Below are positions 24,001-27,000 of a stretch of DNA of 64,000 nucleotides, piece by piece; within the stretch, counting starts at the first letter, position 1; each line of letters starts with the position of its first letter. A program made the position numbers. Location: the NCBI RefSeq assembly GCF_058153355.1, contig NZ_JBLWLY010000002.1; one strand, 5' to 3'. Source of the stretch: a plasmid.

Positions 24001-27000
24001 CAGGCCGGAAGGTGGTATCAACAAAAATGTTACCAGGATATGCCGCGCCAGCGGCATGTAAGGCGGCACTCCGTTGTTGCACATGGCAGAGGAGTAAAAC
24101 CGCCGAAGCCCGGCGTAAGCCGGTACGGTCGTCCGGATATCACCGATCCTCCTCCAGCCCTGCGAGGCAATGCGGCCTGTCAGCGATGAAAATGCCTCTG
24201 TGCGCGGTCGGAGTGGTCCCGACAAGGGGTTACTTTTACCGTTACCTCTGTGGACGTAACCGCACTCAAAGAAATTGTATATACCAGACCAGTTGTATCA
24301 AGCTTATCTGAGGTAGCCTGAGTTTAACGGACACTCCTTCCTGAAATAGAATGGCATCAGAAGGAGCCAATAATGAGCAGAAAAACCCAACGTTACTCTA
24401 CGGAGTTTAAAGCCGAAGCCGTCAAAACGGTTCCTGAAAATCAGCTTTCGCTCAGTGAAGGCGCTTCCCGATTATCTGTTCCTGAAGGCACTTTAGGACA
24501 ATGGGTTACCGCCGCAAGAAAAGGGCTCAATACACCTGGCTCCCGCACAGTGGCTGGAAGTTATGCAACTGCGTAAGGCTTTAAATGAAGCACGACTTGA
24601 GCGAGATATATTAAAAAAAGCAACAGCGTATTTTGCCCGGGAGTCGCTGAAAAATACGCGTTAGTCGAACAATGGCGACAACAATTCCCTGTTGAAGCGA
24701 TGTGTCGGGTACCTGGTGTATCCAGGAGCGGTTATTACGACTGGGTACAGCATGCCCCCTCAGACAGAAAACAAAGTGATGAGCGGCTAAAACTGGAGAT
24801 TAAGGTGGCACATATCCGCACTCGCGAAACATATGGAACCCGGCGGCTCCAGACGGAGCTGGCAGATAACGGAATTATCGTCGGTCGTGACAGACTGGCA
24901 CGTCTTCGTAAGGAGCTGAGGCTGCACTGTAAGCAGAAACGCAAGTTCAGGGCGACCACAAACTCTGACCACAATCTGCCGGTTACGCCGAATCTGCTGA
25001 ATCAGAACTTTACGCCCACAGCACCTAATCAGGTCTGGGTCGCAGATATAACGTATGTTGCCACCCGGAAAGGATGGCTGTATCTCGCCGGCGTCAAAGA
25101 TGTTTATACGTGCGAAATTGTCGGTTACGCCACGGGAGAGCGCATGACGAAAGAGTTGACGGGTAAAGCCCTGTTTATGGCGCTCAGGAGCCAGCGCCCA
25201 CCTGCCGGGCTAATCCACCACTCCGAGCGAGGTTCACAGTACTGCGCATACGATTACCGGGTCATACAGGAGCAGTCTGGTCTGAAAACATCAATGTCGC
25301 GTAAAGGTAACTGTTACGACAACGCTCCGATGGAAAGCTTCTGGGGAACGCTGAAAAATGAAAGCCTGAGCCACTATCGTTTTAAGAGCCGGGATGAAGC
25401 CATCTCAGTAATACGGGAATACATTGAGATTTTCTACAATCGTCAGCGTCGTCACTCTCGTCTGGGGAATATCTCCCCGGCAGCCTTCAGGATAAAATAT
25501 TATCAGATGACTGCTTAGAAAAAGAACAAATGGTGGTGTCCGCTATTGCCAGTACACCTCAGCCGGGTCGTTATTCTGGAAGTCAGGGGACGCTGGATGG
25601 AAGCAGCTGAAGCATGGCGGCGGGCTGCCTGTATCGCTCCCCGGACAGACTGGCAGCAGTTTGCCCGGAAAAGGGCTGAACACTGCCCCCGGCGCTGCCG
25701 GGAAAGGGGGTAACGAAAAAAGCAGCCTTCATTACACCAGGTGTCAGAAGGCTGAAAGGAGTTTGTTTATGTGATTTGCTTTTTAATATCCGGTCGGGCA
25801 GTATGAGCCCTGAGTATCAGGGAGTCTTTTCCGCATTAAGTCGATTTTTATATTTTGTGATTAATTTCACAAAATAAGGTGTTGTTCAATGTGTGCTGCA
25901 ATATTCAGGATGCCTGATATACAGGTGCCATTTATTTGATATGGAGAATAACATGAGGAAATATATTCCACTGGTATTATTTATCTTTTCATGGACGGTA
26001 TTGTCTGCAGATATTCATGGACGGGTTGTTCGTGTACTGGACGGTGATACCATCGAGGTAATGGCCTCACGGGAGGCGGTGCGGGTCAGGCTGGTAAATA
26101 TTGATGCACCAGACGGAATGAATGTTAATCAGTTTATGGTTCGGGCCGGGGCTGTCTGGATATATGAGCAGTACAACACAGATACTGTGCTGCCTGTCCT
26201 TCAGAATGAAGCCAGACAACAAAAACGTGGGATCTGGTCAGATGCTGATCCTGTTCCCCCCTGGATATGGAGGCACCGTAAATAAAGCGATGGCAATTTT
26301 ATCATTCATCTGTTCTCAGCGGGAATCAACATGGCGAAAACAAAACAGGAATGGCTGTATCAGTTACGGCGATGTTCATCAGTCAATACCTTGGAAAAAA
26401 TTATTCATAAAAACAGAGACAGTTTATCGACCAGTGAACGTGAATCATTTAATTCGGCAGCAGACCACCGGTTAGCAGAATTAATCACCGGAAAGTTATA
26501 TGACAGAATACCAAAAGAGATATGGAAATATGTAAGATAATAATTCAGCATAATTAATCGCCCAAGGGTAGATAAATAATGAAGCTGATTATTCTCATTG
26601 TTTTGATTATTGCAGCGTTACTTATCCGGATTATCCTCAAAAGTGTAAATCAGCATTCTCCTTTGCTGATGCAGTTGCATGCGGCAGGTATACGGACCGG
26701 TGATGCAGAGCGAATACCGGCAACGTCAGGAGACACTGCTGACAGAAAGGGAAGTCAGTTTTATGAAAGGGCTATTCAGAATTGTGGATATGAAGCGGTG
26801 GTATCTGTGTCCGCAGGTACGGATCGCTGATATCGTCCAGCTGAACGGGAATATCCGGCCACAATCACGCCCGTGGTGGCAGTTATTCAGAGTGGCACGT
26901 CGATGTGGTTATCGTTGGCGGCGTACGTTCAGTATTGTTGCAGCAATTGAGCTGGATGATGCCAGCCATTTACGACCGGAACGCAGGTGCCGGGATATTC

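Follow-up and report, generated by a model that had tools for sequence, protein, structure and literature searches.

A likely relic of an IncF secreted nuclease gene, shortened by an in-frame deletion, on a pINV-type virulence plasmid

The 64,000-nt stretch of DNA analyzed here (contig NZ_JBLWLY010000002.1 of RefSeq assembly GCF_058153355.1; hereafter the window) belongs to a virulence plasmid of the pINV type of Shigella and enteroinvasive Escherichia coli (EIEC). At 25953–26285 on the plus strand it carries an open reading frame (ORF) of 110 codons plus stop codon, recognized from the ORF list, a match to the Pfam SNase family and alignment to full-length alleles. We consider it highly likely that this ORF is a decaying relic of a secreted SNase-like nuclease gene of the IncF plasmid backbone, here called nuc, and the relic is very probably non-functional. 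We favor decay because the gap in the gene appears to be repeat-mediated, essential residues are lost, the neighboring genes have decayed as well, the allele is restricted to one lineage, and its substitutions resemble those expected under neutrality. Compared with functional orthologues the gene is thus disrupted, as is typical of a pseudogene. According to a preliminary description made from the DNA alone, the gene could be either a plasmid nuclease in decay or the source of a shorter protein retained for a non-catalytic role; our data speak for the former, and nothing was found that supports the latter.

The 110-codon ORF and its product

Translation of the nuc allele is predicted to start at the ATG at 25953, which is preceded at a distance of 6 nt by a ribosome-binding site, GGAG (25943–25946, plus strand), that is identical in all reference alleles. 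A GTG at 25893 would mechanically extend the ORF to 130 amino acids, but all homologues use the nuc ATG instead. Positions 25953–26009 (plus strand), read directly from the sequence, encode a leader, MRKYIPLVLFIFSWTVLSA, that is predicted to act as a Sec signal peptide and to be cleaved in front of DIHG, which would leave a mature short form of 91 amino acids. Judged by eye, this leader combines a basic N-terminus, a hydrophobic core and an LSA cleavage motif; a hydrophobic N-terminal leader is common to all nuc homologues that were aligned. One window-specific change, P15T, falls within the predicted signal peptide.

Homology of the 110-residue protein to the SNase domain is documented by a match to Pfam family PF00565 (E = 4.3e-9; 37.2 bits versus a cutoff of 21), in which residues 53–97 align with profile positions 59–107, that is, only with the C-terminal half of the profile. 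In agreement with the preliminary description, the leader and the segments VLDGDTIEV, IDAPDG and ARQQKRGIWS are all present. Similarity of the N-terminal part of the protein to two NCBIfam nuclease models, EcnA and NucI, is weak. Membership in either family was rejected, as the full-length protein reaches only 53.9 bits (cutoff 180) and 47.3 bits (cutoff 250), respectively. Scans for consensus sigma-70 promoters upstream of nuc yielded none on the plus strand, in the window and at an intact locus alike, and are therefore uninformative; the idea that the promoter had been lost was dropped.

The full-length parent gene on IncF plasmids

The parent of the short allele is a 462-bp gene of the IncF plasmid backbone that encodes a 153-residue "thermonuclease family protein", exemplified by WP_001233868.1 on pMO17_54 and WP_001233859.1 on CP065614. 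Under the same designation, ORF074 of pEntH10407 is listed with 153 amino acids (PMC2762410). A megablast search against plasmids returned about 3,800–3,900 records, mainly Escherichia IncF plasmids, and all of the best matches were split in two pieces such that about 530 bp of the record corresponded to 401 bp of the query. Four large protein clusters (514, 2115, 2474 and 457 member sequences) all have a length of 153 amino acids, as opposed to 110 in the window. The full-length nuclease is thus carried by thousands of plasmids, and its core is strongly conserved. A literature search on the function of the full-length IncF nuclease retrieved annotation tables or unrelated papers and no experimental characterization.

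Around the parent gene, the IncF backbone has the order traX, finO, ANR-family gene, nuc, hha, DUF2726 gene, repA. This order is found in the reference loci L001 and L004–L007, with which the window is collinear. The position typical of the orthologue group, between the ANR-family gene and hha, is preserved in the window; finO is absent, since an insertion sequence (IS) cuts the relic at 25563. Gene order from the ANR-family gene to the DUF2726 gene, signal peptide and ribosome-binding site identify the relic and the 153-residue IncF nuclease as products of the same gene, and the retained parts share 89% protein identity and about 95% DNA identity with the full-length IncF alleles. What sets the relic apart from the parent is the loss of codons 52–94, comprising the catalytic Glu, Tyr and Arg as well as α1, β4 and β5, together with five unique amino acid changes.

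A 129-bp deletion between phase-matched direct repeats

Pairwise and multiple alignment with full-length 153-residue alleles revealed one clean, in-frame gap of 129 bp (43 codons) in the window nuc, the remainder being collinear. It corresponds to codons 52–94 of the parent. The preliminary description, which had called for such an alignment, was therefore right about an in-frame loss and put it somewhat too high, at about 50 residues.

The endpoints of the gap coincide with a direct repeat, TT(G/T)ATGCACC(A/G)GA, of which the full-length gene has two copies 129 bp apart, TTGATGCACC(A/G)GA (encoding I-D-A-P-E) and TTTATGCACCAGA (V-Y-A-P-D). An unbiased search for repeats ranked this pair (D1) first in all three reference alleles inspected. 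Exact microhomology at the gap amounts to 7 bp in alleles of the L001 type and 10 bp in those of the L004 type. In the window, the deletion junction reads GGTAAATATTGATGCACCAGACGGAATG, and the sole surviving copy, ATGCACC(AGA), is located at 26104–26113 (plus strand), as delimited by alignment gap, microhomology and repeat ranking; its codons supply the Ala-Pro in the newly formed IDAPDG motif. A gap flanked in this way is a classical mark of slippage during replication or of deletion mediated by microhomology, and we propose that one of these processes, acting between the two repeat copies, removed the 129 bp.

Both repeat copies lie in the same codon phase, each encoding Ala-Pro, so that any deletion between them is in frame. 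Since the frame simply follows from the phase of the repeats, its preservation carries no information on selection. Bacterial pseudogenes arising by slipped mispairing between direct repeats, and the deletional bias of decaying bacterial DNA in general, have their counterpart in nuc in that one repeat copy is kept and small deletions and IS insertions surround the gap. Such pseudogenes differ from nuc, whose deletion happens to be a multiple of three and which gene callers still report as an intact "endonuclease" (P0001). A caution for annotation follows from this case: a deletion between phase-matched repeats can leave a clean ORF that is labelled "endonuclease" or "thermonuclease family protein" and has no catalytic center.

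About ten other rare nuc alleles in public data (P0003, P0004, P0005, P0007, P0008, P0020, P0046, P0047, P0049 and P0051) have different in-frame internal deletions of 12–68 residues. Their endpoints lie elsewhere, the inferred microhomology is 0–4 bp, and most of them likewise lose residues of the catalytic core; they are mostly singletons from metagenome or automated assemblies. The 123-residue P0054 ("endonuclease, partial [Shigella sonnei]"; 997 member sequences) was rejected as an independent truncation, as its contigs end inside the gene.

Loss of catalytic residues and of the SNase fold

Residues were mapped by aligning the full-length protein to solved SNase structures. Deleted in the window are E54, Y86 and R88, the equivalents of SNase Glu43, Tyr85 and Arg87, and the IDAPDG junction places an Asp where the general-base Glu stood. 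Retained are D30/D32 (SNase D19/D21), R46 (R35) and D51 (D40), that is, the equivalents of the Ca2+-ligand aspartates D21 and D40 and of Arg35, as seen in the alignments both to SNase and to the family. The preliminary description had the catalytic Arg and Glu missing, which applies to the equivalents of Arg87 and Glu43 and extends to Tyr85; the equivalents of Arg35, Asp19/Asp21 and Asp40 are still there.

No other part of nuc is as constrained as the deleted segment. A family alignment of 57 sequences, extending to identities of about 40%, shows conservation of at least 90% at E54, Q57, D84, Y86, G87 and R88, all inside the deletion. Within the set of full-length IncF alleles, the ratio of nonsynonymous to synonymous change per site (pN/pS) is 0–0.3 in this segment. 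All 56 aligned homologues have it. An exhaustive HMMER search of 1.84 billion representative proteins detected 38,590 homologues, and the distant ones that were listed (35–60% identity) gave one continuous match each, covering roughly residues 20–152. These data bear on a further alternative, namely that a distinct SNase subfamily is normally this short, or that the gap is an assembly artefact. Beyond the intact frame nothing argues for it; the continuous matches of the listed homologues across the whole domain speak against a subfamily, and GCA_015332025.1 and GCA_043012465.1, two further independent assemblies with the deletion, speak against an artefact. We regard this alternative as hardly credible. 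A short form normal for a subfamily was also the finding that the preliminary description had named as its refutation, and on this point the description stands.

AlphaFold modelled the full-length mature protein with a predicted local distance difference test score (pLDDT) of 97.1 and a predicted template modelling score (pTM) of 0.91; the model superimposes on SNase with template modelling (TM) scores of 0.79–0.82 and root-mean-square deviations (rmsd) of 2.0–2.4 Å. For the short mature form the corresponding values are pLDDT 88, pTM 0.57, TM 0.33–0.40 and rmsd 8–10 Å, and its model found no match in the PDB at E ≤ 1e-3. Structure prediction, the other check suggested at the outset, thus gave a short model that no longer superimposes on SNase. 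The elements of the full-length model follow the order β1, β2, β3, α1, β4, β5, α2, α3, and the deletion takes out exactly α1, β4 and β5. Accordingly, the short product keeps strands β1–β3 and the C-terminal helices, and in the models it falls short of the five-stranded barrel of the oligonucleotide/oligosaccharide-binding type with three helices.

In SNase, E43, R35 and R87 are each needed for normal catalysis, and large fragments of the enzyme are unfolded. From this enzymology, the residue mapping and the models, we infer that the short protein is catalytically dead and unable to form the five-stranded barrel. If made and exported, it would probably be unstable and be degraded in the periplasm. 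With respect to nuclease A of Staphylococcus aureus (PF00565), the full-length IncF parent is homologous at about 30% identity and has a superimposable model, whereas the relic is devoid of the E43, Y85 and R87 equivalents and of two of the five barrel strands. By descent the window nuc belongs to the SNase family, but it falls short of the structural and catalytic hallmarks of that family. The ParB nuclease of RP4/RK2 (parCBA operon), which we take to be another plasmid-borne SNase homologue, comes from a different plasmid group and context, and its likeness is mentioned here with no claim of membership.

Distribution of the short allele

Among 5.8 billion proteins searched, the exact 110-residue protein occurs as a single-member cluster (P0001, "endonuclease [Escherichia coli]") on two contigs. 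These stem from assemblies GCA_015332025.1 and GCA_043012465.1, show the same neighbors of nuc, and are both 99.98% identical to the window. The 129-bp deletion was found in no PLSDB plasmid and in no RefSeq complete E. coli genome. Its recurrence in independent assemblies shows that the short allele is real, yet only one rare lineage has it. The allele has already entered the public databases, where it is not flagged as defective.

Substitution pattern and the case for a retained protein

Changes were scored as window-specific if the window had them and four IncF reference alleles from E. coli did not, and 74% of them were expected to be nonsynonymous under neutrality. In nuc, eight such changes are nonsynonymous and four are synonymous, which does not deviate from neutrality (p = 0.52). 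By contrast, all seven window-specific changes in the adjacent hha gene, which served as internal control, are synonymous (p = 7e-5 versus neutrality), and the two genes differ significantly in their split (Fisher p = 0.013). Three of the eight nonsynonymous nuc changes are shared with functional Salmonella alleles (L005, P0002); exclusion of these leaves a ratio of 5 to 4 (p = 0.25 versus neutrality; p = 0.034 versus hha). The pN/pS of the window nuc versus full-length alleles ranges from 0.35 to 0.91. Five amino acid changes, P15T, A68V, V70I, P78T and L94I in window numbering, are found in no other allele examined, and two of them (A111V and L137I in full-length numbering) replace residues with a family-wide conservation of at least 90%. 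Taken by itself, the substitution pattern of nuc is consistent with relaxed constraint. An intact nuc ORF is unremarkable because in a neutral simulation 60% of the copies were still open after 12 random substitutions.

Several observations nevertheless weigh against decay. The ORF, the ribosome-binding site and the signal peptide of nuc are all intact. The gene has suffered no further insertion or deletion (indel) as compared with five in the neighboring DUF2726 pseudogene, and about four would be expected at the rate of the latter. The window-specific amino acid changes include several conservative ones (A to V, V to I, L to I). The local confidence of AlphaFold for the short form is still high, as seen from its pLDDT of 88. 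Finally, the power of the substitution test is low, as it comprises 12 changes and four reference alleles, with three of the eight nonsynonymous changes occurring also in Salmonella alleles.

The intact expression signals, the absence of further indels despite many in the neighboring DNA, and the conservative nature of some substitutions would also fit a rival explanation in which selection maintains the 91-residue mature secreted protein for some non-catalytic task. It might bind nucleic acids or nucleotides in the periplasm via the retained Asp and Arg residues, or interfere with a co-resident full-length nuclease. Such a function would also agree with the preservation of the D19, D21, R35 and D40 equivalents and with the identity of the allele in three assemblies. 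Against it stands that the in-frame outcome is fully explained by repeat phase and the open frame by the neutral simulation, that the nuc ratio fits neutrality on a branch where selection can be detected, as the example of hha shows, and that two of five barrel strands plus helix α1 are gone from a model that matches no known fold. Moreover, three assemblies with 99.98% identity represent one lineage rather than independent retention, and other pINV plasmids are entirely devoid of the gene (see below). We therefore rate selective retention of the short protein as distinctly unlikely.

Regarding the remaining points in disfavor of decay, AlphaFold is known to recover local structure from a family alignment even if a deletion is destabilizing. 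The pLDDT of 88 stems from that alignment and does not indicate stability, and pTM and structural superposition were used in its place to judge the short model. That nuc has no further indels would follow most simply from a 129-bp deletion that occurred late in comparison with the decay of the DUF2726 gene.

Genetic context: an eroded piece of IncF backbone

The nuc allele is part of a 1.6-kb relic of IncF backbone (25564–27143) that is sandwiched between an IS3-family element and an IS66 fragment. The left-hand element, at 24309–25563 (plus strand), was assigned on the basis of Pfam domains HTH_Tnp_1 and rve, its other copies in the window, and the RefSeq annotation "IS3 family transposase". 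Its right end removes the first 21 codons of the ANR-family regulator gene, a 5'-truncated remnant of which (25564–25713, plus strand; parent 70 amino acids) is recognizable from homology to L001 and L004–L007 that begins at 25564. The spacer 5' of nuc has a 7-bp deletion.

Downstream of nuc lies hha (26331–26540, plus strand), an intact gene of 69 codons according to its translation and a Pfam HHA match (E = 7.8e-24), whose product is identical to Hha of the IncF plasmid CP013026. It adjoins both the broken nuc and a DUF2726 pseudogene and, as its synonymous-only changes indicate, is under purifying selection, which suggests that the Hha modulator is still used by the virulence plasmid. The DUF2726 pseudogene (26579–27105, plus strand) was delineated by alignment, by its split ORFs and by a Pfam DUF2726 match on the second piece only; relative to intact 196-residue alleles it has five small deletions (−6, −17, −11, −1 and −5 bp). 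A GAATAC direct repeat flanks at least one of these, the deletion of 17 bp, and the remnant as a whole is a clear example of deletion-biased pseudogene decay beside nuc. The right boundary of the relic is a fragment of an IS66-family transposase gene (27144–27357, plus strand), defined by Pfam LZ_Tnp_IS66 and by the 25047/27144 junction of another pINV plasmid.

That junction is found in the EIEC pINV plasmid CP065612 (L011), the only such comparison aligned in detail, where 25048–27143 is wholly absent and 25047 is joined straight to 27144. The missing 2.1 kb comprises the 3' part of the IS3-family element, the ANR remnant, nuc, hha and the DUF2726 remnant. Other pINV plasmids of EIEC, Shigella boydii and Shigella dysenteriae cover only about 77–78% of 15000–27200. 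It seems that the window lineage either preserves an older arrangement or has re-acquired the 2.1-kb segment via IS recombination; in keeping a segment deleted from other pINV plasmids, it helps to reconstruct pINV history.

In three Shigella plasmids (CP026775, CP026879 and CP026783; L012–L014), nuc, hha and the DUF2726 gene are each interrupted by IS1, so that these genes have been inactivated independently there. At about positions 5001–7900 of these loci the full order traI, traX, finO, ANR, nuc, hha, DUF2726, repA can be read. The loss of the segment from another pINV plasmid and the IS1 interruptions in Shigella imply that the nuclease is dispensable in these hosts.

Both observations could be taken one step further by assuming that loss of the nuclease was itself selected in the invasive Shigella/EIEC lineage, an adaptive inactivation of the antivirulence type whose product would still be non-functional. 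The several other rare alleles with in-frame internal deletions in public data point in the same direction. Yet IS1 has also entered hha and the DUF2726 gene of the same Shigella plasmids, and the DUF2726 and ANR-family genes have decayed in the window. Because hha, the DUF2726 gene and the ANR-family gene are damaged, too, general erosion of the backbone rather than targeting of nuc is indicated. Furthermore, some EIEC pINV plasmids have an intact nuc (L001, CP065614), and each of the other deletion alleles was seen once in many thousands of sequenced copies, so that some of these alleles may be assembly artefacts. In our view, adaptive inactivation is very unlikely.

A more far-reaching proposal would combine related ideas: that the exported 91-residue remnant is a stable mini-protein with a new non-catalytic function in the periplasm, or that the IncF nuclease is recurrently selected for inactivation in invasive E. 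coli and Shigella. We deem this proposal very unlikely; recurrent inactivation, if true, would point to an unrecognised cost of the IncF plasmid nuclease. Decay of nuc as one more eroded backbone gene agrees with what is known of IncF scaffold erosion in pINV plasmids, and taken alone the relic has little weight.

Other features of the window

The virulence plasmid character of the surroundings is apparent from a gene for an OspC-family effector shortly downstream of the relic. On the near-identical contig L002, genes for PhoN2, an omptin and an NleE/OspZ-like protein come next, and related plasmids annotate ospB between them.

On the minus strand, 25610–25797 gave a full-length match to the Rfam family AS-pc02 (RF02876, "Antisense to pHK01_099") with 161 bits (gathering score, 40), in a region shared with the truncated ANR remnant and the spacer 5' of nuc. 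This antisense RNA element seems intact although the opposed sense gene has lost its 5' end to the IS.

At least four nearly identical copies or part-copies of the IS3-family element are present at 4187–4823, 24309–25563, 52364–53002 and 58345–59597 and at related positions, each with an OrfB of 272 amino acids (4231–5049, 24700–25518, 52410–53228 and 58736–59554). Multiple copies of this kind provide ample substrate for rearrangements. Moreover, Rfam group II intron domains (Intron_gpII twice and group-II-D1D4-2) were detected at 5772–5849 (plus strand), 12571–12648 (minus strand) and 14205–14321 (minus strand). The pair on the minus strand brackets an ORF of 410 codons (12651–13883) that may code for an intron-encoded protein.

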